The notes: a model not told the origin generated them from the letters alone. A DNA stretch of 64,000 bases from an uncultured Phycisphaerales bacterium (GCA_963758525.1 CAVWVQ010000003.1:4576001-4640000); one strand, 5' to 3'. Numbered from the stretch's first letter, positions 3,070 through 51,914 are shown. Numbers and translations are program-made.

Positions 3070-4617
3070 ATGAGCAATACTTTCTACATCACGACGCCGA
3101 TCTACTATCCGAACGCGGATCCGCATCTGGGGCACGTCTACACGACGATCGCCGCCGATGTTTTGGCTCGCTACCACCGCCTGCGCGGCGACGATACGTG
3201 GTTCCTGACCGGCACCGACGAGCATGGGATCAAGATGGTGAAAAGCGCCGCCGCCGAAAACGTGGAGCCGGCGGAGCTTTCAGAGCGGGTGGCAGCGGTC
3301 TTCCGCGATCTCTGGAAAGAGCTGGAGATCACAAACGACGATTTCATCCGCACCACCGAGCCGCGACACAAAGCCGGCGTCAATGCGATCGTGCAGAAGC
3401 TGGTTGCCAACGGCGACATCTACCTTGGCGGCTACGAGGGGTGGTACGACGAGGGGCAGGAAGAATTCGTCACCGAAACCGACGCCAAGCTCAATGCATA
3501 TCAATCCGCCATCAGCGGCCGGCCGCTCACGCGGTATAAGGAATCGACGTATTTCTTTCGCCTCACGAAGTACGTGCCGCGCGTTCTGGAATATATCGAG
3601 GCCCATCCCGATTTCATTCAGCCCGAATCGCGTCGCAATGAGGTGGTGAGCAAGCTGCGCGCTGGGGTCGATGATCTCTCGGTGAGCCGGGCCACGCTCA
3701 AGTGGGGCATTCCGATGCCGCACGATCCGGAGCATACGGTCTACGTCTGGATCGACGCCCTGAGCAATTACATCACCGCGTTAGGTTACGGCAGCGCCGA
3801 TGACTCGAAGATGAAGCGATATTGGCCCGCAAATGCGCATCTGATCGGCAAAGACATTCTCTGGTTTCACTGCGTCTATTGGCCGGCAATGCTCTTCGCG
3901 CTGGGGCTTGAGCCGCCAAAGGCAGTGGTGGCGCATGGATGGTTCACCACAGAGGGCCGCAAGCAGAGCAAGTCGTTGAAGAACTTCATCGACCTGTCAA
4001 AGCTGCGCGAAAAGAACGCGATCTATGGCCCCGACGCGCTTCGCTACTTCCTGCTGCGAGCGACGACTTTCGGCGCCGACCCTGACTGGAGCGACGCGGA
4101 CTTTTCCAAGGCATACAAGGAACTGAAGAACGTCGTCGGGAATTGCCTGAATCGGCTGCTCGTGATGCTCGGGAAATACCGCGACGGGACCATCCCTGCC
4201 GCCGGGAAGCTTGAGGAGATCGACCATTCTCTGGTCGCGGCCACCGCTCGATTGCGCGGCGCGCTGGAAGGGGCGTACGCGCGCTTTGAGCTGCATCATT
4301 GCGCAACGCTACCGATTGAGCTAGCCCGTGCCGTCAACGGCTATATCGATGCGACCGAGCCGTTCAAACTGCAAAAAGATCCCGCGAAGAAGCAGCGCCT
4401 CGATACGGTCCTGAATCTCGCCGCGCAGGCGATGTTCCAGGCGCTGGTCGGCCTGCTTCCGGTGCTCCCTCACAAGGCAGCCCAAGGGCTGACGCAGCTC
4501 AATGTGCCGATCGAGGGAAAGACGCTTTCCACTTTGGCGGAGTTGGTATTACTGCCGGGACATCAGACCGGAACGCCCAAAGGCTTATTTCCGGACGTTG
4601 AGGAAAAGCCGGCCTGA
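3070..4617 (+). CDS. metG: Methionyl-tRNA synthetase
   Basis: FYITTPIYYPNADPHLGH, FLTGTDEHG, YVWIDAL, IGKDILWFHCVYWPAML, KMSKS-equivalent KQSKS. Confidence 0.97.
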   Translation: MSNTFYITTPIYYPNADPHLGHVYTTIAADVLARYHRLRGDDTWFLTGTDEHGIKMVKSAAAENVEPAELSERVAAVFRDLWKELEITNDDFIRTTEPRHKAGVNAIVQKLVANGDIYLGGYEGWYDEGQEEFVTETDAKLNAYQSAISGRPLTRYKESTYFFRLTKYVPRVLEYIEAHPDFIQPESRRNEVVSKLRAGVDDLSVSRATLKWGIPMPHDPEHTVYVWIDALSNYITALGYGSADDSKMKRYWPANAHLIGKDILWFHCVYWPAMLFALGLEPPKAVVAHGWFTTEGRKQSKSLKNFIDLSKLREKNAIYGPDALRYFLLRATTFGADPDWSDADFSKAYKELKNVVGNCLNRLLVMLGKYRDGTIPAAGKLEEIDHSLVAATARLRGALEGAYARFELHHCATLPIELARAVNGYIDATEPFKLQKDPAKKQRLDTVLNLAAQAMFQALVGLLPVLPHKAAQGLTQLNVPIEGKTLSTLAELVLLPGHQTGTPKGLFPDVEEKPA

Positions 4618-34533: not shown

Positions 34534-35490
34534 TCAAATCGAAGTGGACGACGGTATCGACATATCAACCGGCTTCATGAAATCGGTGCTGCCGCGGCGG
34601 ATTTTGAGGGTTTCAAAGTCGAGCTCGCTGTTAATTTCAGCGCCGATCAGCAGCACCAGGGCATCGATGTAAAAAAAGAGCATAAGAATGGCGACTCCGC
34701 CGAGGGTGCCGTAGGTCTTCTCATATCCTTTGCCGCCGATGCGGTCGACGTAGAAGCGGAACGCCATTGCCAGAATCACCCAGACGACCACGCTGAAGAC
34801 CGCGCCGGGGGAGAGCCAGCGGAACGGGTGACGGATCGCCGGGCCTTTGTAATAGATGATCGAGAGGAGGGTCATCATGAACAGGAGGGAGAGTGCCCAG
34901 CGCGCAATATCAAACGCGATGATCGGGAGCGAAAGGCGCGTGGCATAGTCGATGTGAATCACCCATAGCTTGATGGCACTTCCGATGGGAAGCAGACACG
35001 CGACCAGCAGCAGAAGAATGATGACGATGATCGTGAGGAGAAGCGCCAGCGGTCGTTGGATGTAAAAGGGTCTGCCGCGTTCGACTTCGTAGCACCGATC
35101 GAGCGCGGACATAGTCATCGCCACGCCGCTGCTGGCAGCCCAGAGCGCCACGCCCAGGCCGATGTAAAGAAGCTTGCCGCGCGGCTGATAGAGGAGGCTC
35201 AGATAGTTGTCGTTGATATTGTGCCAGATCATGTCGGCAGACTCGGGGATCATCTGCCTGAGCTGGGCATGAATCTCAGATCTGGCCCGGGCCTTGGCGT
35301 AATTCGGCAGGTAGGGGAGCAGCGTCAGCAGGAAGATGAAGAATGGAAAGATGGCAAACAGCCACGAATAGGCCAGCGCCGCGGCCCAGGTCAGCAGATT
35401 GTCTTTCATTGTTTCATCGGCTACCCGCTTCAGGAAGCGGTACCAGCCGATACTCTTGACGACGCGCGGAAAATCGGAGAGCCGGGCCAT
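34534..35490 (-). CDS. YihY/BrkB family membrane protein
   Basis: AAALAYSWLFAIFP, LSPGA, YEKTYGTLGGVAILM...LLIGAEINS. Confidence 0.92.
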   Translation of the reverse strand: MARLSDFPRVVKSIGWYRFLKRVADETMKDNLLTWAAALAYSWLFAIFPFFIFLLTLLPYLPNYAKARARSEIHAQLRQMIPESADMIWHNINDNYLSLLYQPRGKLLYIGLGVALWAASSGVAMTMSALDRCYEVERGRPFYIQRPLALLLTIIVIILLLLVACLLPIGSAIKLWVIHIDYATRLSLPIIAFDIARWALSLLFMMTLLSIIYYKGPAIRHPFRWLSPGAVFSVVVWVILAMAFRFYVDRIGGKGYEKTYGTLGGVAILMLFFYIDALVLLIGAEINSELDFETLKIRRGSTDFMKPVDMSIPSSTSI

Positions 35491-35543
35491 TGGGGCATTG
35501 TTTTCAACGTGCTGCGTTTGTCCATGACGCGGCCCACCTCTCC

Positions 35544-35859
35544 CTAGCCCCGCTCCGCGGCCGCGAAACGCAGAAGATTCGGCAGGAGTCGATCGGCGGC
35601 GGGATCGACGCCGAGGTTTTCAAGGATTTGCAATGCATTGAGCACGATGCTGCCGGCTCCGTGGTCGTGGACGGACAGCAGCACGCCGGAGCGGTATTCA
35701 TCGGGATGAATCCGGCAGAGGTGGGCCGCGCAGATGATCTGTCCGCCGGCGTCGACGTCGACAAAACCGGTGAGCGGAAGCAACCGGGCGAAGATGCGGT
35801 CGTCGAGGAGGCCTTGTGCGCCCAGGCCGTCGAGAATCGGGTGGTTGATTCCCCACGCG
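35544..35859 (-). repeat. 316-bp direct repeat, copy A: orphan 3' end of the GH2 gene
   Basis: Matches 49103-49418 at offset 13559 with about 6 mismatches counted by eye. Confidence 0.95.
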
Positions 35860-36420
35860 GCAGCACCGCCGACGGATTGGCGTTGAGAATCGCCCGGCCG
35901 CTGCTGTCGTACTCGGTAAACGTGCCCCACATCTGGCCGGTGGTGGTGTCCATAGCAGCCCGTGGTTAAAGTCCCGCGCTATCCGATGCGCCGCGGATTC
36001 GGGCCGGGATCGAGGCGTCGAGACGCAGCAGTATTGCAGCTAAATACGGGGAAGTCTCGACAACGAAGAGCCCGGCCCGAAGTCGCAAGCAGCGGCCGCG
36101 CGACTTTAACCACGGGCTGCCAAAGACCGAAAGCATCAACTGGCCGTTGGAGTTGTAGTAGCTGATGTTCTGATTGCCGTCCGGCTGTGTTTCGACGGTT
36201 TTGTTCTGCCAGCTGTTGACTCCGGGGGCATTGCCGCTGACGGAGTAGCTTTCGGTGTAACTTCCCTGCCCGCCAGTGCAGGCGGAGCAGCCTTCGCCTT
36301 GCAGCGTCCGGCTCACCACCTGATCGGCCGAGTTATACCCCAGCGCGATGTCGGCATACGGCGCGATCTGGGCATCGGTCAGCGAATCGAGCGAAGTCGT
36401 CGGATACGCGGCCACGATGC
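35860..36420 (-). pseudogene. Internal fragment of an RHS/YD-type gene, interrupted by a 168-bp element
   Basis: ...QIAPYADIALGYNSADQVVSRTLQGEGCSACTGGQGSYTESY...KTVETQPDGNQNISYYNSNGQLMLSVF|MDTTTGQMWGTFTEYDSSGRAILNANPSAV; both halves are in the same frame. Confidence 0.65.
35954..36121. mobile_element. 168-bp MITE/REPIN-like insertion with terminal inverted repeats
   Basis: GCAGCCCGTGGTTAAAGTC ... GACTTTAACCACGGGCTGC; excision restores GTC TTT ATG GAC in frame; a second right half lies at ~36427-36494. Confidence 0.8.
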
Positions 36421-36689
36421 GGGCCAGCCTCGATAACGAAGAGCCCCCCCGAGGACACAAGCAACGGCCGCGCGACTTTAACCACGGGCTGCCAGGGGGC
36501 ATACAGCCGCTTTACAATCCGGGATAACGCGAGTGACCGCTGGGCGGTCAACCCTTGTTTGTCGCTCGGAATCAGCCGTTCGCTTTACACGACTTTACAG
36601 AATTTTACGTGTTCGAGCGGTGCGTAAATAACAAGAAACCGCTTTCGTTACGACAATAAACAGATACGTTTCCCCGCCGATTCGGTGCT

Positions 36690-36855
36690 GGAATTCATCC
36701 GGCAGTTGCCGCGGTTGAGCACATGGAATACGTGATTGTCCGCCGAACATCTTGTACGCCGCGGCATTGCCGCAGATTATCCCGAGAAATGGCCACCGTC
36801 AATAAGTACGAGTGTCCCCCTTCGCGTTTTTCGAGTGTCCCCCTTCGCGTTTTTC
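36690..36855 (-). pseudogene. 5' remnant of an HUH/Y1 (RAYT-like) transposase with its upstream terminal motif
   Basis: ATG at 36767: MPRRTRCSADNHVFHVLNRGNCRM; upstream AATAAGTA(CGAGTGTCCCCCTTCGCGTTTTT)x2. Confidence 0.75.
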
Positions 36856-37042
36856 GCCGGTGCAGGCGGAGCAGCCTTCGCCCTGCAGCGTCCGGCTCAC
36901 CACCGGCAGCGTGAGGACGCAAATGTCGAATGTATGTTTTTGAAAAAGTCGACGCCTCCCCTGACAGATCCCGTATACGAAGGCAAGTTCAGTGGCTGGT
37001 TTTGAGGCGCCCGGTGACACTTGGCAATCCCCGTGTAGCCCC

Positions 37043-37624
37043 CTACGGCCCCGATTTTCCAAAATCAGGGTCCGCCGTCTCAACTGTGATGACTGCGACA
37101 GGTGATACAACTTCTCCAGACTCCAAGATCTTTTCGATCGGTGGTCCGTCAAACTTTGGGACATTGCGAGAAACCCGGAATCGGTAGCTCCCTACCAAGG
37201 TCATATCCCACTCACGACTAATGTCGAGTTTATACTCGCGCCAGTCGCCCGGCCGTAGCTCGGGAAAACCAGTTGCCGTATCAAGCGCAATGCCTCCATC
37301 CTCTAGAAAGTGCCCGAAAGCTGTTCTATGTACAGGCTCGTCGTCGCGCCACATTTGCACTTGAAAATCCGACATCGCCCCAGTCTCCTTAAATGACAGC
37401 GGTCGCGCCGATACATTCTGAATTCTCACGCGGACAAGAACCTGTGAACCCGCCTGAGCGCCGCTTGGCGGGAAGATCATCAATTTAAAACCGTCGCCGA
37501 CGGCCTCCTCTGGTCCAGATGCGGCCAGGCCGCCGGTTCTTTTCTCACGTGAGCAGCCGCCACTAACCAGGCAAGTCACCGTCATGATCGCGACAAGAAT
37601 CAAGGATTCTCTAAATACGAACAT
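37043..37624 (-). CDS. Putative lipoprotein with a beta-rich domain; candidate partner/immunity protein
   Basis: Signal ending SGGC; RIQNVSARPLSF...LRPGDWREYKLDISREWDMTLVGSY; lower GC than the backbone. Confidence 0.7.
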   Translation of the reverse strand: MFVFRESLILVAIMTVTCLVSGGCSREKRTGGLAASGPEEAVGDGFKLMIFPPSGAQAGSQVLVRVRIQNVSARPLSFKETGAMSDFQVQMWRDDEPVHRTAFGHFLEDGGIALDTATGFPELRPGDWREYKLDISREWDMTLVGSYRFRVSRNVPKFDGPPIEKILESGEVVSPVAVITVETADPDFGKSGP

Positions 37625-37677
37625 CTTTAACCTCCGGACTCGCCGGCGCTACAAAACATCACAAAAAGTCACGTTCC

Positions 37678-37830
37678 CTAAAACTCAGTCGGCAGCGGTG
37701 TTACAGGTCCAGCTTCGTTGATAAAGAGGTTCCCATTACCTTGGGCAGAAAGCCAACTAGGCTCTGCCGTTGGCACCTCGCCCTTTGGGTTAACCGTCCA
37801 TTGAGGTACAGAATCCATCATCCAAGAAGC
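37678..37830 (-). pseudogene. Orphan C-terminal tip of an unknown protein
   Basis: Open frame ASWMMDSVPQWTVNPKGEVPTAEPSWLSAQGNGNLFINEAGPVTPLPTEF* begins at the transposase inverted repeat and ends 53 nt before the lipoprotein gene. Confidence 0.45.
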
Positions 37831-38587
37831 TGTTAAGGTGACATCCACCGTTTTTATCTGCGTTTTTCCGGCATCTTCGGCCTGCCTCTCGGATTCAGAG
37901 TGTACTGCAGCCCCATCCGGCCCGCCATTTTCAGGGTCCAGGGATCGCTTCCCAGCGGCCGGCCACGCTCGAAGCTAAGTGCCACCCGTTTCACGGCGGC
38001 CGGATCCATCGGCTCGTTCACCAGCGCCGTCCAGTTTCGCGGGCGGTCGATCGGCCAATCGTCGAGCAGTTGTCTCGCCAGCTCTTTCTGGCAGCCCAGG
38101 CTCGACCAGTGCCAGTCCTGCGCCCGCTCCACCATCTTCGCCCGCAATGGATTGGCTTCCACATAACGCAGCAGTGTCAGCAAATGCCCATCTTCCTGGA
38201 CAACGAAGCTCTTGTAGCGGCCCTGATAGAGATGGCCGCTGGTCCGCCGATAATGAGCACGGTACCGCTTCGCGTGCGTATTGGTCAGCCAGGAGAAGTA
38301 CCTCGCCAGGTCCTGATCCCGACGCGGCCGCACCACCATGTGCCAGTGGTTGGACATCAGGCAGAAGCCGAAGACTTCGATCTCGGCCTCTTCCTTGGCG
38401 TCGACCATCAGATCGCAAAACGCCAGGAAGTCTCCCGGCTTGCGGAAGATCTCCAGCCGGCCGTTGCCGCGATTGAGAACGTGGTAGACAAGACCGCCGA
38501 CAGCTGCGCGGGACGTGCGGGGCATAGTTGGATCATAACTACGGCAAAAAGTCTGTCGATCAAAGATGGATGTCACCTTAACAGCTT
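37827..38587. mobile_element. Y1-transposase unit bounded by a perfect 21-bp inverted repeat
   Basis: AAGCTGTTAAGGTGACATCCA (37827-37847) and TGGATGTCACCTTAACAGCTT (38567-38587). Confidence 0.82.
37854..38525 (-). CDS. HUH/Y1 tyrosine transposase, RAYT-like (IS200/IS605 superfamily), intact
   Basis: YHVLNRGN, FCLMSNHWH (HUH), HLYQGRYKS, RYVEANP (catalytic Tyr), WHWSS. Confidence 0.93.
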   Translation of the reverse strand: MPRTSRAAVGGLVYHVLNRGNGRLEIFRKPGDFLAFCDLMVDAKEEAEIEVFGFCLMSNHWHMVVRPRRDQDLARYFSWLTNTHAKRYRAHYRRTSGHLYQGRYKSFVVQEDGHLLTLLRYVEANPLRAKMVERAQDWHWSSLGCQKELARQLLDDWPIDRPRNWTALVNEPMDPAAVKRVALSFERGRPLGSDPWTLKMAGRMGLQYTLNPRGRPKMPEKRR

Positions 38588-38591
38588 TCCT

Positions 38592-38787
38592 AAGATCAGC
38601 GGCGGGAGCCGCAGCAGAAACGGCGCGGCGGCATGGGCGACGCTTTGCTCGCTGCTCCGCACGGCCGATCAGCAGGGCCAGAATCTGCTCGAGACGATCA
38701 AGGCGATGTTAATTGGAGCATGGGCCGCCAAGCGGCCGCCGACCATGCCGGCGGGGCCGTGACTGGAGCGGCACGCTAAACAGTTAC
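38592..38787 (+). mobile_element. IS66-family 3' remnant (transposase C-terminus plus right end)
   Basis: KISGGSRSRNGAAAWATLCSLLRTADQQGQN; end GCTAAACAGTTAC (IS66 GTAA/TTAC terminus). Confidence 0.72.
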
Positions 38788-38869
38788 CGGGGTTTACGGG
38801 CCATACCATCAGCTCAATCGGCAGGAAAGGCTGATGACCCCTTTCCTCACCCAGAAGCTGGCCTGACCC

Positions 38870-39056
38870 CCTTCGCATTTTCCGCTCGAAGGCGGCAAAG
38901 TCGCTGTCCCGGCGGAACATGACCATCCGTCCCACCGCGATTGAGCACATGGTAGACCAGACCGCCGGGAGCGACGCGAGGAGGGCGAGGCATGCTGAGA
39001 AAGGTAAATTCCGGAGCACCCCGTGTCAAAATAACTAGCTGCGTCCCCGTTTCAAT
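38870..39056 (-). pseudogene. Second 5' remnant of a RAYT-like transposase with its terminal motif
   Basis: ATG at 38993: MPRPPRVAPGGLVYHVLNR/..GRMVMFRRDSDFAAFE; upstream AACTAGCTGCGTCCCCGTTTC; truncated at GCTGGCCTGACCCCCTT. Confidence 0.8.
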
Positions 39057-39059
39057 TTT

Positions 39060-39268
39060 CTGCAAACGGCCAAGCTGCACGGAACGAACGCGATTCAATT
39101 CATGGTGAAGCTGCTGACCGAGCCGACAGAGAAGGCGATGGCCGCGCTGTTTGCCAGCGGCCCGTGAGCCTGCGGGCGCGGCCTTCCCCCAGAATTAAAA
39201 ACGACTCGAATTCGCCCCGACGAATCTCGATCTACGCCGTCACGCGTGCGCTGGGGCTAAACTGTTAC
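39060..39268 (+). mobile_element. Second IS66-family 3' remnant
   Basis: LQTAKLHGTNAIQFMVKLL...SGP*; end GGGGCTAAACTGTTAC. Confidence 0.62.
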
Positions 39269-39299
39269 CGGAAAATGACGGATGTCACGTTTGCAGCTT

Positions 39300-39415
39300 C
39301 CAAGTTTCTACAGAGAGGTTTCAGTAATGCTTCAGCTTTGCATGACATCCTCCTCTCGCGAGCTTAACTTGGCGCAATCCCGTTAGAATTTTCTGCGCGG
39401 CGGCTAAACTGTTAC
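39300..39415. mobile_element. Third IS66-type end, overlapping the stop codon of the 39404-39997 gene
   Basis: GGCTAAACTGTTAC at 39402-39415, same terminus as 39255-39268. Confidence 0.5.
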
Positions 39416-39997
39416 GCTGCCGGAATTTGTTTCTACCGGGCGTCCGCACTCGGAACAGCGGATCGGATTGCCTCGGAGATCGTAACCGCAATTCCTGCAG
39501 CGACCTTCCACCGATCTGTGACGTTTGAACGCCCGGACAAGCAGCAATAGCGTGACGGCGACGAGAAAAGCTTCGGGCCACCAGAGCGATAGCCTTAATA
39601 GACAGACTGAACCTCGAACGTTCATATACGAGAATCCCAAGAACGAAAAATTTGTTCCGTTCCGCGCCGAGTATTTTGGAGCTGGGCGCCAGCCGCCTAA
39701 GGTTCGAGGACGCGTCCACGCAATTATTATGTTCCCCTCTGCGACGGCAAGGTCCTGGGGGCCTTCCACCGAGTAGGACCATGCCGATGAACCGGTCCAA
39801 TCAGACCCGATGAAGAGCAGCGCCTCACGGTTGGAGGTGAATAAGCCGAGTTTCTCATCCCCCGACATCGTCATGCTGAGCATGTCTGTCACAAAGGCGC
39901 CTCGGATAATTTCGAAGGACAAAAGCACGAGTAGGCAGATCAGTAAAACCAACGCTGCCATAGCTCGAACAGAAGTTCCTTGTCGCAAACGCGTCAT
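39404..39997 (-). CDS. Two-TM membrane protein with a C-terminal Zn-ribbon; candidate partner/immunity protein
   Basis: Two hydrophobic helices; CRNCGYDLRGNPIRCSECG; starts 16 nt after the giant gene's stop; low GC. Confidence 0.75.
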   Translation of the reverse strand: MTRLRQGTSVRAMAALVLLICLLVLLSFEIIRGAFVTDMLSMTMSGDEKLGLFTSNREALLFIGSDWTGSSAWSYSVEGPQDLAVAEGNIIIAWTRPRTLGGWRPAPKYSARNGTNFSFLGFSYMNVRGSVCLLRLSLWWPEAFLVAVTLLLLVRAFKRHRSVEGRCRNCGYDLRGNPIRCSECGRPVETNSGSVTV

Positions 39998-40013
39998 CGG
40001 CCAATTCTCGGCG

Positions 40014-43000
40014 CTATTTGTTCTTCAGCACGTCTGTCCAAGTAACGGGCCCGGATATCGGCAGCGGTCCCGCGAGCGCGGGGGGCGGAGGCGTGCCGAC
40101 TGCGACGTACTTACCGCCCACAACCTTCACCGTAATGGCGTAATTCCAAGCATAATATTCGAGGGGAACCATAACGCTGTTCTCGCCAGCAGGGCGGTAC
40201 ATGATAAATGTCTTGAACGCGTCTCGGGCGTCTGCTCCCAAAACTCCTGGATCTACTCCGTCTGTGGAGGGACTATCCCAAAAGAACTGAGGCGATGACC
40301 CATCGGCCGGAAAATCCATTGTGCCTGCAGTCGTCGGAATGAGCTGTGCGGGGAGTAGGTTGTCTAGGTCAAATCGCCCGCGGGTGTCATACACGGTTTT
40401 CGGTACCAAGCCAAATTCACGGCGGACAGAACGAACAAGTTGCACAAAGTTCCATATTCCAGAGTTATACCAGGGCTCGGTCACGTTGGCATTGATGGTG
40501 AGCCCATACGACCCGGCGCCGGTTGAGAACAATCCGAACGAGGAACCACCTGCGGTGACCCGAGCTGTGCCGATAGCTGCGGATGACTCCACGAACGGCG
40601 AATCTAAGTCGAATGCGGACCCCGCTTTGATCACCACGCCATTGGCAAGAGTGACTTGCAGGCCAAGATTCTCCGTCTTGTACCCGGCCGCCGGTCCCGT
40701 CTTTTGTAACCAGTAGAAATAAATGCGCCGCTGGTTGGTGCCGGTATGCTCATCCATCACATCGGCTCCGTCATCGGGCTGCAACGAGGTAGATTGCGCG
40801 GCCTTTACGTATGCACTATAACTGTGATACGCAACGCCCGGGTCGGGTACCGCCCAACTATATCCAGCGCCAACCAAAAGCCCCGCAGGGGCCTCTACGA
40901 CAGCGCTGGCATCAACGATTTGCCCTACCAGCCATCTGTTTTCTTCGTTCGAGATATCTGTGTCCGCAAGATGGTCACCATTCGGATCATCGTTGAGAAT
41001 CATTTTGAGGCGCACTGCCGTTGCCGGCTCTGAAATGGCGCTGGCGATGGGTGGAAGCACGCCGGCGGTTGCCGGCTGCTGATCGAAGAGCGTAAATTGG
41101 ACGTCGCCAAGTCTTGTACTCCCACCAGTGACGCCGACGTAGAGCGTGTCTGGAATTGCATCAGTTCCGACGGTCCAGATCTTTACACCCCCGGTGCCCC
41201 ATGGAACCTGGTGGTAAACGCCGTCCGGGGATTTGCTCCATAGATCAACGATGGCAGAATTTGTTGCGCTCAGTACTACGGTGGTTCCGGCGGGCTGATT
41301 CTGCGGAAGCGTGAATGTTAGCGGCACCAAGTTCGATTTCCCGTCACCGCTGCCCTGCAGAATGATGCCATCGGAGCCGTCACCGAGCTTGACGCTCAAT
41401 CCATGGGAAGCATCGACTACCGGCGCTTCCACAGCGCTAAACAGGTAGCCGGCTCCGGCCAAAATACTCGCTTTTAATATTGAGCCGATATCTGGCGTTG
41501 TATTGACGGGCGTGACGGGTATCACCACGTCCTGCTCGCCGGCACCGAAATTCACCTGCGTCGGCAAAGCGCTGTAATCCGTGCCCGCAACTGCGGTGCC
41601 GGCGTAGTTGGCAGTCACTGTCAGCGGGGAACTCGGATCGCCGGTGCGGTGGAAGTCGAGGTAGCCGTTCTGCGGGTTGCCGCCGGGGCCGGCGAAGGTG
41701 GCGGTGATCGGGAGGGCCGTGACGCTGACAGTTGGAAGAGTTACCAGGGCGCTCGCGGTGTTCGAGAAAGCGGACGAGCCGCTGCTGTTGGTCGCTTCAA
41801 CTTGGTAGTAGTACGTGACGTCCGGCTGCACGGAAGTGCCGGAGGTTCCAGTCGCATCGAGATAGCTCGTCACGTCAGCAGCGACGGTGAAGGTCTGCAG
41901 ATCGGTTGAAAAGTCGGCGCTGGTGCTGCGCTGGATGGTAAACCCGGTTTCATTAGCCGAAGTGTTGTCCCAGAGCAGCCGGATGCCGCCGGAAGTCGGG
42001 GCGGCCGAGAGGCCGTTCGGCGTGACCGTGCGCCGCCCGAGAGCGTGGCGGCCGCGGAGAATTTCGATTCCTCCAAATATCCTCCGTCCTCGTCTGGCGC
42101 TGTGGTCATCGCGGTGACCACATAGGTCGCACCGGCCTGGCCGTAGAGTTCGGCGCTGGTCGTGGAAGAATCGACAAACGTCTCCGCGCTGCGGGTTCCG
42201 TCGGCGTCCGCCTCATAGACCATGAAGCCGACCATGTTCGGCGTGTCCAGATCATAGGACCAGCTGACGTCTGCCGTATCGGTCCCGGAGCCTGGAACGA
42301 CGGTGATGCCGGTCGGCGCGGAGGGAAGCGTGCCGGGCGTTGTGACGGTGACCAGCGAGGGCGCGGACAGGGCCAATGTAGACGGATCCATCGCCTGTGC
42401 CCAGATCGTGTACGTTGTGTTCGGGTTTACCGAGAGCACATCATTGCCGTAGCCCCACCACCAGTTGCTGTCCAGCCCAGGATATTCAGGACTGCTGAGG
42501 GTGAGAATAAGCAGGTCACCGTTGGAGTCCGAGACGGAAAATGAACTGGGCTGCAGGTCGCTGATCGTCAGCCCGGTGGGCGCGGCCGGCCCACCGGGGT
42601 CGCCGGTGAGGAACTGCCCCGAAGAAGTGCTGGCCGATTTGACGGCGGAGTAAATCATTTCCCCTCCCTTGTCGGCCCGGAGGCGGAAGGAATAATTCAT
42701 GTCGCTGGCCAGTCCGCTCACCACGTAACTCTGAGCGCTGGATGCCGTGGAGCTTCCCAAGTCGGCTATTTTATGAAAGTTCGGATCGCCAGGCCCCGTC
42801 TGCTCGAGCTCCAGATGGGACCCGTCGGAAGCCGAATACGAAATCTGGATGGACGATGTTGAGGCGGCCGCGGCGCTGATGAGAATCGGCATGACGGGAG
42901 CCGAGGTCGCGGGGGCCGACGGCGTCGTGACCTCCGACGCCCCGGTCGCCGCAGAATCTCCGGTGGAGTTCGACGCAGATACCTCATAGGTGTAGGTCGT

Positions 43001-46000
43001 GCTCGGCTGGGCGTTGGAATCCACATAATCCGTGGTCCCGGAATCGACCGGGATCGACTCGCCATCGGGGGCTCCATCCAAAAGCCGTTGCACGTTGAAT
43101 GTCGTTTCGCTGGAAGATTCGTTCTGCCAGACCACTTCCACGCTGCCGGAAGACAACGCGACTGCGGCGACGTTGCTTGGAGCAATCAATGGCGTCGCCG
43201 CCGAAGCAGAGGGATTGGTTCCATCCGCCTCGCCGGAATCGTTGTAGGGGATGACTTGGTAGGTGTAAGCGGTGCCGTCGCTCAAGCCGGTATCGGAATA
43301 GCTTGCGCTCGCGCCAGAGGGCTGATCGACTGAATCGATCGCTTCAAACGTGGTGTTGACGGGGTCCTTGCGGTCGATCTCGTAGCCGGTTGCGCCGGTG
43401 ACGGGCGTCCAGGTCAGCGTGATTTGCGATGCGGAATCGGCTGACGCGGCGAGGCCCGCGAGGGACGCGGGAGTCGTGGTTGCGCTCGTCGAACTTGAGG
43501 CGGCGGAGGTTGCCGACGAAGTGGTCGCCACGACCTGATAAGTATACCCGGTGCCGGGGGAAAGGCCCTCGTCATCGTAAGTGGTTGTGTCGGAATCCGT
43601 GGTTCCGATCGTCGTGAAGTGAACGCCGTCGGTGGAGCGCTGAACGGTAAAGCCGGTCGCGCCCGACGAGTTGTTCTCCCAAGTCAAGTCGATCTCCGTG
43701 CTGGAGATCGTGTCGGCGGTGAGCTGATCGGGAGCAGCGATCGGCGTAGTGACGGCGCTGGACATGGCAGCCGCGGAATCGCCGACGGCGTTGCTGGCCA
43801 GAACCTCATACGTGTAGGCAGTGCCATCCGCCGCGCCGGTGTCGGCATACGTTGTCGTCGAGCCGTCCACCTGGTCGTAGGGAGAGAAGGTCGTGCCGTC
43901 GGTGGACATCTCGATGATGTATTGATCGGCTCCGCTGGCGGCCGTCCAACTCAAATCGACCTCGTTGCTGCCGTTGACGGCGGCGACGAGGTTCGACGGA
44001 TTGGACGGAACGGCAAGCTCGGCCGCCGCGCTGCTCTCGGCGGACGCGACGCCTTCGCCGGAGGGATAGGTGGCAGTCACGGTGTAGTAGTACGGCGTGG
44101 ATGTAGTCTGCGCATCCGTGTAGCCGGCCTCGGTGAGGCCGGTCTGGTATGGGGTTGTCCCTTCACCGCCGGTCGTGGTTGAGCGGTAGAGATTGTAGCT
44201 GGACGCGCCCAGCGCCGAATCCCAACTGATATCGATGGCGTGATCGCCCGGCGTTGCCCACACTTCGCCTGGCCCGACCCGGCCGGGAGCCGCGTTTGCT
44301 TCGGCGCTGGCCGAGCTCATTCCCAGCGGATTGATCGCCTGAAGCGTGTAGTAATACGTCGCGCCATCCGTGAGGCCCGTGTCGGTGAAGGTCGGATCGC
44401 TCAACCCCGAAGCGACAGGCGTCGCGCTCTCGCCGCCGGCGGTTGTCCCGCGATAGACATCGTAGCTGCCGGCGTCCACGCCGCTGTCCCAAGTGAGAAC
44501 GACGCCTTGCTCCGCGGGCGTCGCAGTGACCCCGGTCGGAGCGTCAGGCGCGGTGGTCACATCCGAGGCATAAGCCTGACCCGTCAGCGAATCCGCCGAG
44601 TCGGCGACGTCGATCATATCCAAGCCGCCGGCCCCGCCGGCGGTATAATCCCCCGTCGCGGTGATCGTTCCCCCTTCGCCATCGCTTTCGACCGACCACG
44701 TGAACGTCGTCGGCTGGGTCGTCATCGCGTTGCCGAACTGATCGGCTTCCACTGCGACAAACGGCTCGGACATTCCCGCCACCAGCACCGGCCCCGCTGG
44801 CGTGACATCGATGCTGGTTGCGATCTGCGTCACCGTCAGTGACACGCTGCTGGTCACGGCCAGTCCCGCCACGTTGGTGATCGTCGCCTGGAACGTGTAA
44901 TTGCCCGCGACCTGGAAGAACGCGAGCGCGTCTTTGGCCGTGTTCGTCCCGGCGTCGGTGAACGTCGGAGCCGGCGCACCCGACGGAGCGGAGGTGGTGG
45001 TCCACGCGTAGGTCAAACCGCTCTCGCCGTTCGCATCCGCGCCGAGCACATTGAGAGTTGCGTAGGTGCCATCAGTCGAGAGCATCGCTGTCGAAGCGGT
45101 GGCAACCGTCGGAGGGCCTTCGGCAACGGTCGCCGATGCCGAGCCCGTCACGGACCCCGACGTTGCGGTGATGGTCGTGGAACCGACCGACGTCGGCGCG
45201 GTGTAAAGGCCGGTCGAGTTGATCGAGCCGGCTCCGGTCGCGGACCAGGTAAACGTCGGCTGCGTCGTCAGCGCCGTGCCGAACTGATCGAGACCGCTGG
45301 CGGAGAACTGCGTTGCCTGGTTCTCGTTGATTGTCGGAGTCGCTGGCGTCACCGCGATGCTTGTGAGCGTCAGGCTGACCGTTACGTTGACGGCACTGGA
45401 CGTGCTCGTATTGTAGTTCGCGTCGCCAGCATAGACGGCGGTAATCGAATCGGTGCCAACGGGGAGGGCCGTCGTCGAGAAACTGGCGACTCCGGCGGCG
45501 AGCGTGGCGGTGCCGATGGTGGTGCTGCCGTTCTTGAACGTCACCGAGCCGGCGGGTGTGCCGGCGCCGGGAGCGACGGGGCTCAGCGTTGCGGTGAAGG
45601 TGATGTTCGCGCCCGCGGCGCTGCTGGAGAGCGCGGTGGTGGTCGAGGAGTGGTTGACGGTCTGAGTCAGCGTGTTGGAGGTTTTGGAGTTGAAGTTGCC
45701 GTCGCCGGCGTAGACGGCGGTGAGAGCGGTATGGCTGCCCGCCGGGAGCGTCGTGGTGGTGAACGTGGCGACGCCGCCGGAGAGCGTGGCGGTTGCGAGC
45801 GCAGTCGATCCGTCCATAAAGGTGACGGTTCCGGTGGGCGTGCCGACGCCGGGGCTGACGGCTGAGAGCGTGGCGGTGAATGTCACGCTTTGGCCGTAGC
45901 TGATGACGCCGGTCGTGCTCTTGGCAAGCGATTCGGCCGTCGATGACGGGTTGACGGTCTGGGTGACGGCGCTGGAAGTGCTGGTGCTGAAGTTGGTGTC

Positions 46001-47436
46001 GCCACTGTAGACGGCGGTGACCGGGTGCGACGCGGCTGCCAGCGAGCTGCTCGTGAAGGTGGCAGCGCCGCTCGAAAGCGTAGCGGTGGCCAGCGTCGTC
46101 GATCCGTCCATGAAGGTGATCGTCCCCGTCGGCGTTCCCGCGCCGGGGCTGACGGCGGCCATCGTCGCGGTGAAGGTCACGCTCTGGCCGTAGATGATCG
46201 GCGCGGTGGTGCTCTTGGTGAGAGTCGTGGTGGTCGAAGACTGGTTGACGGTCTGGGTAGCGGCGCTGGAGGTGCTGGTGTTGAAGTTGGAATCGCCGCC
46301 GTAGACGGCGGTGATTGATGGATGGCTGCCGGTGGCAAGGGAGGTTGTGGTGAAGGTTGCGACGCCGCCGCCAAGCGTGGCGGTTCCGATGGCTGTGGAC
46401 CCGTCCTTGAACGTGACGGATCCCCAGGGCGTTCCGATTCCCGGGGAGACTGCCGCCATCGTGGCGGTGAACGAGACGCTCTGGCCGAACCTGATGGCGC
46501 CGGTGGCGTTTTTGGTCAGCGCGGTGGTGGTCGATGACTTGTTGATCGTCTGGGTGAGGGCGTTGGAGGTGGCGGCGGCGAGGTCGGGACTTCCGCCGTA
46601 GATGGCGCTGAGCGAATGCACGGCCGCTCCCAGCGACGCGGTGGCGAGCGTCGCGACGCCGCCGCTGAGCGCAGCGGTTCCCAGGACGGTGCTGCCGTCC
46701 ATGAACAGGACGCTGCCGGCGGGCGTCTCCACGCTGCTGGAAAGCGTGGCGGTGAAAGTGACGCTCTGCCCGAAGGTGATGGCGGTGCTGGTGCTCTTCG
46801 AGAGCGTCGCGGTCACCGCGCCGGATGCGGCGCTGTTGCTGACGGCTCCGCTGATGATCACCTTGCCGGTTCCCGCGACCGTCAGCGAGTGCCCTTTGGT
46901 GTCGATGTTCCCGCTCAGCGTCAGCGGGTTGGCAATATCATCATTGTCGGTAACGACCAGATTGCTATCGAGGCTGATCGGCGCGGCGATCGTCGCGCCC
47001 GCGACCGTGCCGCTGGCGAGGGTGAGCGAGGCGGACGAGCTTCCGTTGTCGAACGTGAGTATATTCCCAGCCGATATCGTCTGTGTCTGCCCGACGCCGC
47101 CGGTGAGCGCGGTATCCCCAAAAAGGGCCGATTGCACCGTGATATTCTGGGCGAGTGCGATGCTCTGAGTCGTTGTTAGATCAGCACTTAAGTTCGCCGA
47201 GTCGGCCGACGAATTGGGGAACGCGCTGCTGGGACTCCAACTGGCTGCCGCCGCCCATGTTGGGTTGGCGCTCGCAAGATTTTGCCACGCGTAGGCGGTG
47301 AGCATCTGGCGCGATTCGAGGGATTCCACGACCGCATTGACGGCCGGCCGTAACGCGGCGGCGCGAGGAGGGGATGGCTTGCTCTTTTTGCCCGATCGCT
47401 GCGCGCGGATCTTCCCGCTGAATTGTTGGATTGCAT
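40014..47436 (-). CDS. Giant LEPRxLL surface protein (~2470 aa): Ig-like repeats, FN3 repeats, Calx-beta-like domain, low-GC C-terminal domain (frameshifts near 47350 and 42040)
   Basis: VESLESRQML; GQSVTFTA Ig repeats; FN3 LTWENNS...GFTVQRSTDG; across 42040 the frame continues as TVTPNGLSAAPTSGGIRLLWDNTSANETGFTIQRS into ORF 40014..41873. Confidence 0.85.
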
Positions 47437-47868
47437 AAAGGGCCCGGTTTTGCTGACTATCCGCCCAAAGAAGCGACTCGCGGCGAGTGCACGTGAGGCA
47501 CCCGTCGCAATGAAAACAACGCGGCAGTGAGGCTCACCTCACGGGCCACAACAAAACTAATCAAAACGGAGGAGGAGAAAGGACTTCGTTCAGCCCCCGA
47601 GCCTTCCCATTCGTTACGGGCGATAAATTAAACTTCGATCTCAAAGGTGTCAACAATAATCTTTTTTGGTTTTTCGGTTTGCAGATTATTGCTGTATCAG
47701 GCCGCTGGATGTGCAAAGCGAACCGGATGATGTGTCCGCCGGCGGCAGCCGGTTGCTGCATCCGCCGGCGATCCGCCATCGTCGGTTAGAATCACATACG
47801 CCGCGAAACGGGGCGGCGCGGTTTGGAGCGTTGGCTCTTGTCGAACTGGAAAAAATAATGTGCCAATT

Positions 47869-47898
47869 CGTGCCATTTCGTGCCATTTCGTGCCACTT
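47869..47898. repeat. 10-bp tandem repeat GTGCCATTTC
   Basis: gtgccaattc gtgccatttc gtgccatttc gtgccacttt; array begins near 47859. Confidence 0.6.
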
Positions 47899-48434
47899 TA
47901 CGGGTGAAGCTGAGGTCGGGGCTTTCTTGTTCAAATTCGGGCGGCAGTAAAGGTCGCACCGCAGACGGGGGATTTCAGCCACGAGTCAGGAGTTCGGAGA
48001 CAATCAGGCTGCGCCGCAGCCGCAGAGCGCTTCCGACGGACGGTCCGTTGGCTTTGGGAGAATCACAATCAAGGTGGATTGCCGTCTGCGAAATCTGTTA
48101 GAGACGGTTTGGATGGATAGCTCATCATGGAAAGCGGAGAGCGCCGTCGAGGATTCTCGCGGAAGTCGAGGAATGGTCCGCACGGCGGCTCGACGCTTTC
48201 GGCCATTCGAGGCGTACCTTAGGAGCCGCCGAGCGGACCCTACGTTTCTGGAACAGAGGGAATCGTCGGCACAGGAGAAACCGGAGCCAATCAATGTCGC
48301 ACGGGGGCGAGCGAAAAGGATACCGTGATGCAATCACAACAGATCGGCGTGGACAGCCGCAGGCTCAGCACCAAGGCGCACACCGATTGGCAATGCGCGG
48401 AGGCTATGGCCGAGCGCATTGAAATCAATGAGCG

Positions 48435-48566
48435 AATGGCCACAAAAAACACAAAAACACAAAAAGGAAATAGAGCGGCGACACGCAATAGCAGAAAGTG
48501 AGCCGGAAGCTGCTCTCGTCCCCAGGCTCTCTTTTTTTGTGTCGTTTGTGTTGTTTCGTGGCAATC
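48435..48566. repeat. Inverted element with A-rich 9-bp subrepeats
   Basis: GCCACAAAAAACACAAAAACACAAAAA ... TTTTTTTGTGTCGTTTGTGTTGTTTCGTGGC. Confidence 0.65.
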
Positions 48567-48962
48567 ACTCTTTTGGGCTGGCGCGGCTGGAGGGCGGCGA
48601 AGGAGGCGCGTCGTACGCGGCGAGCGTGCGGGGATACCCCGTTTTCAGCAAAGGCGCGCAACTGTTGCGCGCGGTGTCGCGCCAGGCTGGAGAGCATCCC
48701 GCGGAAGGAAAAGGAGTTGCGCGGCGGATGCGACATGCGGCGCTGCAAAATCTGTCGCGCGATGTCGCATGAGCGGTAAAGGAGAGCGACGGAAGCAAGG
48801 AAGACAGTTGGGGGCTGTCATGCTCGCTTCACGAAGCACGCCGGGGTGGGAAGGACAGGATACGCGCGGATCGGCATTTGTTCCGCGGGGAAAATGAGAA
48901 GTCCGGCCGATGTAGACCTCCCGCGGGTGGCATCGTGGTAAGCTCATGGCACCGGGAAGCGC

Positions 48963-49100
48963 ATGGACGACACGACTATTCATCAGGCACTGGAGACAGC
49001 GGAGGCGCATCATCGGGCGGGGGAACTGCCGCAGGCGGAGGCCATTTATCGGCAGGTGCTCTCGCTGCATCCCAACGATGCGGACGCGCTGCAGAAGACT
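48963..49100 (+). pseudogene. Truncated TPR-protein N-terminus
   Basis: MDDTTIHQALETAEAHHRAGELPQAEAIYRQVLSLHPNDADALQ; the TPR pattern stops where the GH2 3' repeat begins. Confidence 0.72.
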
Positions 49101-49102
49101 GG

Positions 49103-49418
49103 CTACTCCCGCTCCGCGGCCGCGAAGCGCAGAAGATTCAGCAGGAGTCGATCGGCGGCGGGATCGACGCCGAGGTTTTCAAGGATTTGCAATGCATTGA
49201 GCACGATGCTGCCGGCTCCGTGGTCGTGGACGGACAGCAGCACGCCGGAGCGGTATTCATCGGGATGAATCCGGCAGAGGTGGGCCGCGCAGATGATCTG
49301 TCCGCCGGCGTCGACGTCGACAAAACCGGTGAGCGGAAGCAACCGGGCGAAGATGCGGTCGTCGAGGAGGCCTTGTGTGCCCAGGCCGTCGAGAATCGGG
49401 TGGTTGATTCCCCATGCG
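49103..49418 (-). repeat. 316-bp direct repeat, copy B (current 3' end of the GH2 gene)
   Basis: Matches 35544-35859. Confidence 0.95.
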
Positions 49419-51914
49419 TCAATCGGCTGCCCGGCGGCGCGCAGGGCGGAAATGGTCGCAAGCTCGCCGGCAGTCAGCCAGCCGTCGGTCTCGGAAGAGC
49501 GGAAGAAGTCAGGCGTGAGAACGAGAATGACCGACCCTTCGTCGGCTCGCTCGCTGAGCGAGCCGAAGGCGGTTGCGGGGTCGATTCCCTCGGGGGTGCT
49601 GGTGACCAGAACCACTTCTCCGCGCTTCCCGCCTGGGTCCTGCGCCGTCGTATGGGAGAATGGAATCCCGCGTTCGTTGAGCCAGCGGGCGAGAATGGCG
49701 TTCTCGCCCACGAGTTTGAGGTGGGATGGAACGTACGAAGCGAGCGGCGGGGCGACGAGAAATTCGAGTTCGTCCGCCGCGGCGGAAGCGCCTTGCTCGA
49801 ACGTCGCGGTCAGCCGGTATCGGCCGGGCGTCGTCTCGATCGTCAGGTCTTCGGCCAGGACAGCGTGCGCACGCGGCGAGCGGCCGGCTGGAACATCGAG
49901 GAGCGTTCGCCGTTCGAACACGATCGCGTTGGTCGGATCAAACACCTGAATCAGGAGCGGATAAGCCGCCGGCGGGAGTGAATGTTCGGTTGCCAGCAGC
50001 GCCTCGATGCGGACGCTTCCCCCCTGCGCCACGAAGCGCGGCTGGGCAAAGAGACACCATCGAACGGGCGAAAGACCTTCGGCGACGCCCGCCATGGTGG
50101 TTTGGCGGGGATCGCGGAACGCAGTGAGGACTCCCGAGCCGCTGCCGATGTCGTCTGTCATCCCGAGCGTGAGGCCCACGATCCGCGGATTGGCGCAGGG
50201 CGGTCAGCACCTCGAGCATTCGTTGCTCGGTTCGGGCCGCAGCCCGCGAGAAAAAGTCCTCGGCCCTGCCGAAAACATGCTGCATGCCCCATGCGTCCCA
50301 ATCGCGGAGGAATTGTTCCAGCCCCGCCGCCCACAGGCGCGCATCCTCTGAGTCGCCTCTTCCGGTCTGCTCGAATCGGCGATGCGCTTTGAGAAGATTC
50401 ACGGTCCCGGGCGTCCGCCAATCGGAAACGAAGACCGGGGTCTGGTCGGCCTCTCCGAGCGAACGGATGGTGTCGGCGTCGGTATCGCTCAGCGGCAACG
50501 GCACGGAAAGATGGAAGTCGCCGCCGAGCGGCAGCACGTTCCACTCAGCCGAGCCGGGATTGCTCATAGACGCGAAGTCCGGGTTGTCGTCGTCTCGGCC
50601 GCTGTTGAGCGCGATCATCCGCGAATCGTCCAGAAATGCAGCCTGCGGGAGCGCTTCGGTTGCGTGCTTGAATACCAGCCGATCGCTGGTGTCGGTGAGC
50701 AGGCCCCACATAACGACAGACGGATGATTGCGATCGCGAAGGATCATCTGCCGGAGGGAACGATCGAAGTGTTCTTCCAGCGCATCGGACGGCTGCATGT
50801 TCCACGCCGCGTAGTTCTCCTCATAGACCAGCAGTCCCAGCTCATCGCAGAGATCGAGTTGCGCGGGAAGCGCCAACCCCGCCATGAAGCGAACGGCATT
50901 AAATCCCATGGCTTTGAGGCAGAGCAATTCGTGGCGAAGCACGTTGGCATCAAGCGGAACGGCTTGCCCGACTGGAAAATGGTTGAGCGTCCGCGCGCAT
51001 TTCCAGTACAGCCGGCGGCCATTCAACCGAAACTCGTTTTCCGCAAATCGGAAATCACGGAATGCGAACCGGGCGGAAACCTCGTCGCCGCGTCCTCCTG
51101 ACTCTGGAAGGACTCGCGCGGTGAGCCGGTAGAGATATGGATCGTCCGGCTCCCACAGCCGCGCGGCCGAGATTGGCACCTGCGTTTCAAACAGCGTCTG
51201 CCCCGGTTGAAGCGTGCGGCTGGTGTTCCCCGCCTGTAATGTTTCTCCTCCGGTCGAGGCGGCGACGCTGAACTTCAAATTGGCGGGGACCGCCGCCTCG
51301 GTTGTATTCAGCACCAACGTCAGCACGTTCAGTATCCCGTTTTGCGGGTTCGGCTTGGCAATCAGTTCGGAGATATAAAGAGCAGGCCGGCAGAGAATCT
51401 CGACCGAGCCGACGATACCGCCAAAGTTGAAGGACGACCCGACGGCTGGCACGTCTGACTTGTTGCGGTGGGGAATCTGATGGAGCGACAGGCCGTCGAC
51501 CGCCTGATTCGAGGGGTTCAGGACGCGAACGCACAGGAGATTGCGTTCGCCGGGCCGGATCGAGTCGGAAATATCGAGGACGAACGGGCTCTGCGCGCCG
51601 TCGTGAGTGCTGATGCGCTCGGCATTGACCCAGACGTCCGCGCGATAATCAACCGCGCCAAAACGGGCGAGATAGCGGCCCTGCGGATGCGGATTGCGGG
51701 CGGGAATAAATTCGCACCAGTACCAGGCGATGCCGTGGTAGTCGGGATAAACCTGCTGGATCGTGCCGGGGACTGGCGCCGGGTGCGCGTCGTCGCGGGC
51801 GGTGGTGTACCAGCGCTCGGCTATGCCCAGGTTGTTCGGATCGACGGCGCAGGACCAGGTTCCGTCAAGCGATTCGACGCCGCGGTAGGTGCCGCTACGG
51901 TGCGGAAGGTTCAT
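49103..51914 (-). CDS. Glycoside hydrolase family 2-like protein (frameshift near 50180)
   Basis: SLDGTW, FGAVDYRADVWVN, LWEPDDPYLY, KAMGFNAVR, LCDELGLLVYEE, RDRNHPSVVMWG. Confidence 0.88.

Follow-up and report, generated by a model that had tools for sequence, protein, structure and literature searches.

How do old C-terminal tips and their partner genes come to be stranded behind the genes of giant surface proteins and RHS proteins? The question is raised by a locus of an uncultured Phycisphaerales bacterium (GCA_963758525.1), contained in a stretch of 64,000 nucleotides, here called the window, that corresponds to C3:4576001-4640000 of the source genome (6.47 Mb in six contigs, of which C1 and C3 are referred to below). 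At this locus a Y1 HUH transposase gene of the type known as TIRYT lies between terminal inverted repeats (TIRs), the arrangement being termed a TIRtron. Two questions meet here: the activity of TIRYTs, and the origin of orphan RHS and effector modules, for which the available portions of earlier studies offer illegitimate recombination (PMC5361080) or a circle (PMC2935791). TIRtrons likely make the non-homologous joint that strands old tips and partner genes behind surface-protein and RHS genes. The transposase family is already known; what appears to be new is the behaviour of the junctions and the link to orphan RHS and tip modules. A literature search that covered little of the subscription literature found no paper linking TIRYT or RAYT to RHS genes or orphan tips, and the accessible parts of PMC3150448 and bioRxiv 2024.07.17.603846 contain no such link.

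Along the minus strand the locus begins with a giant gene encoding Ig and fn3 domains, followed by a gene for a zinc-ribbon membrane protein, a stack of left ends, a scrap of IS66 and the intact Y1 gene. Beyond these lie a tip of ~50 codons, a lipoprotein gene, a 50-bp RHS scrap, a left end with a Y1 remnant and an RHS fragment (Table 1). This order and strand agree with a preliminary description of the locus. The large trafficking protein, the downstream partner and the orphan tip/partner cassette present the layout of a polymorphic-toxin locus. The Y1 genes are distinct and co-oriented, as described earlier, but represent four families rather than three, the additional one being a family C stub (start codon at 38804).

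An intact TIRtron and the cut points at its ends

In alignments of the family A transposase, H60-W-H62 is invariant and the tyrosine is found in the sequence Y121-V-E-A-N-P, which carries the Y---NP signature of class 2. The protein shows a weak match to the TnpA-REP structure 4ER8 (E 2.8e-6), scores 63 bits against the RAYT equivalog NF047646, whose cut-off is 80, and possesses a conserved C-terminal extension of ~80 residues in which no Pfam helix-turn-helix match was found; in TnpA-Y1 subclass 2.1.2 the extension resembles a helix-turn-helix. The available text of PMC3733652 describes TIRtrons as Y1 HUH genes located between TIRs, not between hairpins of repetitive extragenic palindromes (REPs), with a GGGGWSAS core in some of the TIRs. 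The combination of TIRs, HuH motif, Y---NP signature, PF01797 match and a score below the RAYT cut-off fits this description, and judged by these sequence features the intact element is a TIRtron encoding a TIRYT. The earlier proposal of a Y1 protein with inverted repeats in place of REPs is thus borne out, the short motifs being its ends. TIRYTs have been tentatively equated with TnpA-Y1 subclass 2.1, which is RAYT group 1 (PMC6006769), and the enzyme of the window probably belongs to this subclass. According to the portions available, subclass 2.1 is the second largest of the TnpA-Y1 subclasses and occurs in 14.9% of strains (PMC6006769); among the true RAYT groups, group 1 most closely resembles insertion sequences, with 6.3% duplicates (PMC5581495); and the same portions of PMC3733652, PMC6006769 and PMC5581495 report no activity for it.

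Two neighbouring identities were considered and rejected. A REPtron is ruled out by the NF047646 score and by the hairpin-less ends: eight end sequences fold no better than their shuffled versions (z -0.9 to +0.8), and the ends show no GTAG-tagged REP hairpins. IS200/IS605 is ruled out by the symmetric TIRs, the absence of a subterminal hairpin and the absence of a fixed target. The HuH-Y core is common to REP/RAYT (4ER8), IS200/IS605 and the element described here; unlike both groups, the latter combines symmetrical TIRs with ends devoid of GTAG-tagged or subterminal hairpins and falls below the NF047646 cut-off.

The source genome harbours six further near-full copies of family A. Identity among the seven copies compared is 84-99%; an eighth has an internal deletion. 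No target duplication is seen at any of the eight full copies (longest repeat 1-3 bp), and 29 family A tips show no common target sequence apart from 1-3 pyrimidines at the tip. A promoter scan identified one good site, at the left end (38559, 10/12). In-frame reading from the GTG of the TIR into the cargo, noted by eye in four of six cases, was dismissed as not significant. The element resembles known TIRtrons and TIRYTs in having a Y1 HUH gene between TIRs, a GGGGWSAS-like core and repeats in dimers or clusters. Unlike the TIRtrons described in the accessible portions of PMC3733652, PMC6006769 and PMC5581495, it displays self-copying at this scale, no target-site duplication, duplication of flanks, stacks of left ends and the link to RHS genes and orphan tips.

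At least five distinct TIR types occur in the window, and next to the family A element there is a stack of left ends from at least three further families. As full copies of families B and C are present elsewhere in the genome, the other motifs of the window can be recognized as their left TIRs. The junction motifs reported previously are therefore real and do lie at junctions, but they constitute family-specific TIRs (A, B, C, D and further tips), not one site. The GGGGWSAS core is exact in family D and in the tip at 38860-38882, has one mismatch in families B and C and two in family A.

Across the source genome, Y1 pieces or TIRs form 25 clusters. The motif GATGTCACCTT is associated with Y1 pieces more closely than by chance, 26 of its 27 copies lying no more than 3 kb from one, in a zone equivalent to 2.6% of the genome; looser motifs are less specific (17/56 and 4/23 near Y1 pieces). 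TIR tips often stutter their own outer part. Comparison with a small local database gives, for 15 of the 49 outermost tips, a homologue that continues past the tip, which indicates that the neighbour has been severed mid-sequence, although some of the matches are open reading frames (ORFs) on repeats and one row depends on an unpublished genome. The severed neighbours include scraps of RHS, IS66, group II intron, alpha-galactosidase and DUF4058 sequences. That the motif ends coincide with cut points of surface-protein and RHS genes is observed both here and in relatives. A scan for direct duplications of at least 200 bp within 30 kb returned 69, ten rows of which (nine events) are two-copy and free of Y1. 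Three of these nine start at a right TIR: C1:205991 (432 bp, 96.5%), C3:819869 (480 bp, 99.4%) and C3:2842401 (742 bp, 94.9%). Neighbouring Y1 pieces are co-oriented in 18 of 20 cases; with respect to replication, the GC skew is too flat to place an origin, and no strand bias could be read.

An array of small immunity-like genes (Imm22, DMP19) at C1:200000-212000 also contains two group II introns, and a family C TIRtron sits there at the 432-bp duplication. At C3:1060-1095 kb, toxin-antitoxin genes (an MqsA-like antitoxin, BrnT) are located directly downstream of family C and B TIRtrons.

RHS loci, orphan tips and partner genes

All three broken RHS regions of the source genome touch TIRtrons; for its two intact RHS genes, the distance to the nearest one is 16.9 and 38.6 kb. 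Only three of the 25 clusters have a detectable RHS piece nearby, against a permutation mean of 0.27 (P 0.0014; the count includes the window). The family A query was matched in 31 of the 41 genomes searched, among them the source genome and one unpublished genome; relatives carry TIRs of their own, and an inverted repeat scoring at least 12 is present in 55 of the 69 related loci with flanks.

The association was also counted from the RHS side in 23 genomes of the same family, with the unpublished genome G004 left out (G and L numbers are our designations for genomes and loci). Here 62 TIGR03696 matches resolve into 48 loci; fragmented assemblies break at these repeats, so that RHS counts are rough in both directions. 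A Y1 gene is found within 5 kb at 8 of the 48 loci where ~1.0 would be expected, about 8-fold over uniform placement. Counted by match, 15 of 239 Y1 matches are near RHS, the 239 including some weak ones that are probably not Y1, compared with 2 of 178 DDE transposases (DDE_3 and DDE_Tnp_1; Fisher p 0.010). The analysis took in forty additional stretches around these loci. Four further RHS loci (G003, G005, G013, G015) show TIR tips or a stub by eye. A wider sample from other taxa, drawn from the best 80 of 574 confirmed matches in genome_contigs, comprised 79 TIRYT loci (638 kb). An RHS core is present in eight of them, where the family-level density predicts ~0.3.

TIR tips are often located precisely where an RHS core is cut. 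In G001 and G002 a right TIR is joined exactly to an orphan RHS core that is 51-73% identical to the upstream RHS gene (L035, L036, L049), and in G013 and G016 right TIRs are joined to truncated RHS cores. Two metagenome-assembled genomes of Planctomycetota from the wider sample (L097, L111) have a left TIR tip joined to a truncated core, an arrangement that the symmetry of the ends allows. A hand count in relatives found 12 of 13 elements near RHS genes to be co-oriented.

Within the window, the giant gene ends in a conserved all-beta tip. Its family comprises 104 representatives, mostly at or near the C-termini of fn3, PKD or Calx-beta proteins. The GC content drops from 0.62-0.68 to ~0.55 across this tip, in keeping with the low-GC domain described before. 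An initial homologue search with the tip had returned only the protein itself. The AlphaFold prediction is all-beta (pLDDT 93.5), with generic beta-sandwich matches only in fold comparison (Z < 8; best 7.9 and 6.3) and a best score of 0.76 in the Atlas comparison. No Pfam or NCBIfam match, no clear fold match and no toxin signature were detected in the tip. As the fold matches are generic, a toxin activity remains putative, and a role as an adhesin or kin-recognition domain appears equally open.

The fragment at the right end of the family A element probably represents the last ~50 residues of a homologue of this domain: in the profile alignment it covers positions 327-365 of the 372-position hidden Markov model (HMM), that is, part of the last 45 positions, with the EPxW motif. 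This orphan tip is a relic, with only ~50 codons left and no repeat in common with the main gene; for these reasons the kept part of the cassette is likely the partner lipoprotein. No sequence homologue of the lipoprotein was found; its feature look-alikes are mostly unnamed, the BsuPI fold being the one lead. The arrangement recurs on the same contig: the right TIRs at C3:222063 (EPSW motif, by eye) and C3:223704 (HMM match) adjoin pieces of this tip family, and behind each piece comes a zinc-ribbon partner gene. Tip-family pieces followed by genes resembling the first partner occur at C3:222-224 kb, one of these genes showing 36% identity, and G002 gives the same picture by eye; this genome has one full tip-family member and one orphan piece close to TIRtrons (L040).

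Three loci show further configurations at right TIRs or TIRYT starts. In the source genome (L025 12699-16760, C3) a 1353-aa ORF runs from a right TIR and holds two RHS cores, the first an orphan core that continues in frame into a longer RHS piece. In G002 (L043 10554-12131) an in-frame fusion places an orphan RHS core with its tip behind the first ~50 codons of a TIRYT, which could provide the orphan with a promoter and start codon. Another orphan core of this genome extends from a right TIR to a Tle1-like phospholipase tip (L036 13258-15237), with ankyrin genes between modules.

A possible route to orphan modules and its alternatives

HUH chemistry, in which a 5'-phosphotyrosine is formed and the end is joined to a 3'-OH, is established for IS200/IS605 and TnpA-REP. 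Cleavage and ligation by IS608 are described in the available part of PMC6006769. What is observed directly is a multi-copy element without a fixed target, whose tips lie at cut points and begin duplications of 0.4-0.7 kb, and which is enriched at RHS loci. We favour, with a probability of roughly 0.55, the reading that a pile of TIRtrons joins its ends at separate places and so strands an old tip and partner behind the element at surface-protein and RHS loci. The TIRYT would form a 5'-phosphotyrosine at the tip of each TIR, one end per strand because the repeats are inverted. Each end would then be ligated to a free 3'-OH supplied by replication or recombination, with no fixed target. The two joinings, being on opposite strands, need not share one site, and staggered joining would lead to a deletion or a duplication. 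If the right end were joined upstream within an RHS core, the outcome would be a direct duplication or a circle of core, tip, partner and TIRtron. A RecA crossover at the core of a related gene could subsequently give the main gene a new tip and leave the old tip and partner behind the TIRtron. In the product, the main gene would carry the new tip and be followed by the new partner, the TIRtron and the old core piece with its tip and partner, which is the layout X-Y-TIRtron-X'-Z seen in the data. Later elements would land in the same pile and trim it. A tentative extension, about which we have more doubt than confidence, is that TIRYTs are a widespread HUH class that joins its ends independently and that they supply the enzyme missing from C-terminal displacement in Planctomycetota, Nitrospira and other groups, circularizing core-tip-immunity segments to yield orphan toxin/immunity arrays for later use by RecA.

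The proposed joining of ends at separate places has to be weighed against a passive scenario: selfish TIRtrons may simply persist where their insertion does no harm, in the dispensable tails of RHS and surface-protein loci. RecA and homology-facilitated illegitimate recombination would produce the orphan tips there, and elements arriving afterwards would do no more than trim their neighbours by adjacent deletion. A number of observations count against joining at separate places. The cargo at TIR tips is indiscriminate, and within 5 kb of TIRtrons in the source genome there is other mobile DNA (3 of 9 IS5, 2 of 6 IS630 and 3 of 7 group II intron copies), as a passive hotspot would predict. Counted per locus, the RHS association (Y1 8/48, DDE 2/48) is not significant (p 0.09); the genomes are moreover related rather than independent, and G002 contributes three of the eight loci. 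Forty of the 48 RHS loci, and five of the ten with multiple cores (one of the five having TIR tips only), lack a nearby Y1 gene, so that TIRtrons can be at most one route to orphan modules; many orphan arrays are free of them. Only five of eight TIRtrons are co-oriented with RHS in the wider sample, Y1 pieces of the whole source genome show no orientation bias relative to neighbouring genes (35 same, 33 opposite), and a generic TIR regular expression is not enriched at RHS loci (0.75 compared with 0.67 per 10 kb). The match of the orphan tip is modest (4.7 bits, equalled by 17 of 2000 shuffles, p ~0.009), and one of the three TIR-started duplications falls in a dispersed repeat family. The passive scenario is judged less likely than the proposed joining. 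DDE transposases are seldom near RHS cores, and the local duplications that begin at right TIRs cannot be produced by adjacent deletion alone. In addition, the main gene or partner ahead of the left TIR is often intact, and an orphan core of the same clade starts at the right tip.

Integrons and the one-ended capture of ISCR/IS91 carry or stack neighbouring DNA. The TIRtrons do likewise; unlike these systems, they show no oriIS/terIS asymmetry, no IntI match and no single cassette site, and their cargo is severed mid-gene. The preliminary description had envisaged HUH nucleases that cut and rejoin single-stranded DNA at the motifs in an integron-like manner with no tyrosine recombinase; as a dedicated system, a domesticated Y1 would recombine motif with motif and so shuffle whole tip/partner cassettes behind the giant gene. 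A scan of 42 ORFs of the window, the long ones of 35.5-47.3 kb included, detected no integrase family. In the source genome, G001 and G002 alike, main gene and partner are followed by a TIRtron and then by an orphan tip with a partner, and the elements are co-oriented inside piles, yet a dedicated cassette system is improbable: one pile contains several unrelated TIR families, few TIRtron clusters of the source genome are near an RHS piece, the joints connect a TIR to random DNA and not site to site, the self-copying Y1 gene is scattered in many copies, cassettes are cut mid-gene, and neither intact RHS gene has a Y1 gene or a TIRtron within 16 kb. The indiscriminate cargo (IS66, intron and enzyme scraps) and these intact RHS genes instead point to what is likely a mobile element joining two ends at separate places. 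Least probable is an origin of the junctions in misassembly around a repeated element. The source genome is metagenome-assembled, 90.9% complete with 6.1% contamination, and carries frameshifts; against this, the copies differ from one another, the same junction types appear in independent assemblies of other genera and phyla, and the window sits inside a 5-Mb contig.

Known effector loci provide a further comparison. In the accessible portions of the respective studies, displacement of rhs C-termini is proposed to involve a circular intermediate and a crossover in the core, the first origin of the circle being left open (PMC2935791); illegitimate recombination is invoked for loci of the type VI secretion system, with no evidence for an integrase (PMC5361080); and orphan modules are later used in a RecA-type process (PMC3967940). 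Strings of orphan core, tip and partner behind a main gene and its partner are common to those loci (PMC2935791, PMC5361080, PMC3967940, PMC3482391) and to the ones described here. Unlike them, the present loci have a defined end-repeat and a candidate enzyme at the non-homologous joint, and the tip of the window is an unclassified all-beta domain, not a known toxin. Another parallel is TnpA-REP next to prochlorosin genes, where full and truncated copies of subclass 2.1 lie amid a diversified gene family and diversifying recombination was proposed (10.1101/2020.03.09.984088). In that case, unlike here, no inverted repeats were found and the genes face each other; a post-submission note by the authors, which also tempers the reading favoured here, sees no strong evidence for or against causation (10.1101/2020.03.09.984088). 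With an intact 223-aa enzyme, a 26-nt candidate substrate and many natural junctions, the locus makes the activity of TIRYTs and the origin of orphan modules addressable in one assay. If the proposed joining is correct, a HUH enzyme of this kind, able to attach a short defined end to any DNA, would represent a new mode of transposition and a possible tool.

Borders and remaining features of the locus

The giant gene is split by a single frameshift between ~42040 and ~42210, possibly an assembly indel, into ORFs 47329-41870 and 41873-40014. A planctomycete-type motif is present at its N-terminus, as described earlier for a LEPRxLL protein, but it reads ESLESRQML, and the PF07595 score is below the cut-off (E 0.0097, weak). 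The N-terminal protein motifs of the window and the nearest relatives of its TIRYT point to Planctomycetota.

The entire 13.2-kb island is bracketed by a 314-bp direct repeat of the 3' end of a GH2 gene (35549-35862 and 49108-49421, 98.4%), which looks like the product of a single-crossover integration. Neither a TIR nor an integrase is seen at its joints, and this too speaks against a part for TIRtrons there. Two genomes of the same genus are distant (57% identity for YihY), and comparison with them revealed no empty GH2-YihY site; in G001, GH2 and YihY are on separate contigs. Contigs from sequencing runs spanned just short pieces of the locus and contained no reliable joint, which counts neither for nor against the proposal. 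An Rfam search over 35400-49500 gave no match at E 0.1.

Table 1. Coordinates of the features of the locus, counted from the first nucleotide of the window
Feature	Position	Strand	Remarks
Giant surface protein, N-terminal 1819 aa	41870..47329	-	Five Big_3_5 and four fn3 stretches (Pfam)
Giant protein, remainder past the frameshift	40014..41873	-	Last 330 aa form the conserved all-beta two-domain tip
Partner gene 1	39404..39997	-	Membrane protein, C-terminal C4 zinc ribbon
A-like TIR tip	39272..39300	-	Left-end orientation
Family B left TIR and 5' Y1 remnant	38882..39056	-	TIR 39034-39056; ATG 38993
Left-type TIR tip, family C left TIR and Y1 stub	38787..38882	-	Tip 38860-38882; TIR 38826-38853; six-codon stub
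IS66 transposase 3' scrap	38592..38769	+	Cut lies at most 5 nt from the left TIR tip of family A
Intact family A TIRtron, 761 bp	37827..38587	-	26-nt TIRs 37827-37852 and 38562-38587, 92% complementary
TIRYT Y1 transposase, 223 aa	37854..38525	-	HuH at H60-W61-H62, Y121 in Y---NP; PF01797 E 2.6e-14
Putative orphan tip	37678..37826	-	Last ~50 residues, EPxW motif; begins at the family A right TIR tip
Partner gene 2	37043..37624	-	Predicted lipoprotein, 193 aa
RHS scrap, 50 bp	36855..36904	-	Abuts family D left TIR; 96% identical to 36271-36320
Family D left TIR and 5' Y1 remnant	36694..36854	-	TIR with 23-nt stutter 36801-36854; ATG 36767
Multi-copy repeat, ~300 bp	36392..36700	.	In place of the remainder of element D; no assigned gene
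Internal fragment of a planctomycete RHS gene	35863..36430	-
3'-end copy of the GH2 gene	35549..35862	-	98.4% identical to 49108-49421

Several pieces of the stack have near-identical counterparts elsewhere in the genome. The outer flank of the A-like tip (39301-39393) is 98% identical to C1:311698-311790, at another TIRtron cluster, and 38851-39058 is 98.6% identical to C3:224536-224745. Of the two IS66 scraps proposed, the one in Table 1 is confirmed (98% identical to C3:2710142-2710319, with 55-61% amino acid identity to an IS66 transposase), but the second, near 39060-39170, has no match. The RHS scrap exists as predicted, though it measures 50 bp and not 48. Together with its repeat 584 bp away, past element D, it looks like the same signature as the TIR-started duplications. 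The family D remnant has a second copy at C3:934 kb. The repeat that replaces the rest of element D occurs in 11 other places (77-92%), is joined to half of a 178-bp inverted-repeat element and has no Rfam match. The RHS fragment matches, at 58% identity, the N-terminal part of an RHS gene from a same-genus genome. It is interrupted at 35950-36127 by a 178-bp element resembling a miniature inverted-repeat transposable element, with inverted ends of ~30 nt and copies at C3:934.8, 3984 and 4547 kb. A short repeat, possibly the end of another element, is found near the TIR stacks at 38774-38791, 39255-39272 and 39394-39415, and also at C3:2872.5 kb.

Elsewhere in the window, 14178-25151 encodes an intact 3657-aa protein in which an internal RHS core is followed by Big_3_5 and CBM6 domains, not by a terminal toxin; no TIRtron lies within 16 kb of it. 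Upstream of the giant gene, 47800-48776 is a repeat of ~900 bp with no assigned gene, no Rfam match and many partial copies (80-95%), several of which adjoin TIRtron clusters (C3:302-303, 2840-2843, 3466-3467 and 4263-4264 kb). The stretch 48140-49093, which spans part of this repeat and the start of a TPR protein gene, is 95% identical to C1:307775-308730, just upstream of another TIRtron cluster; in the window the TPR gene is severed at the GH2 repeat.

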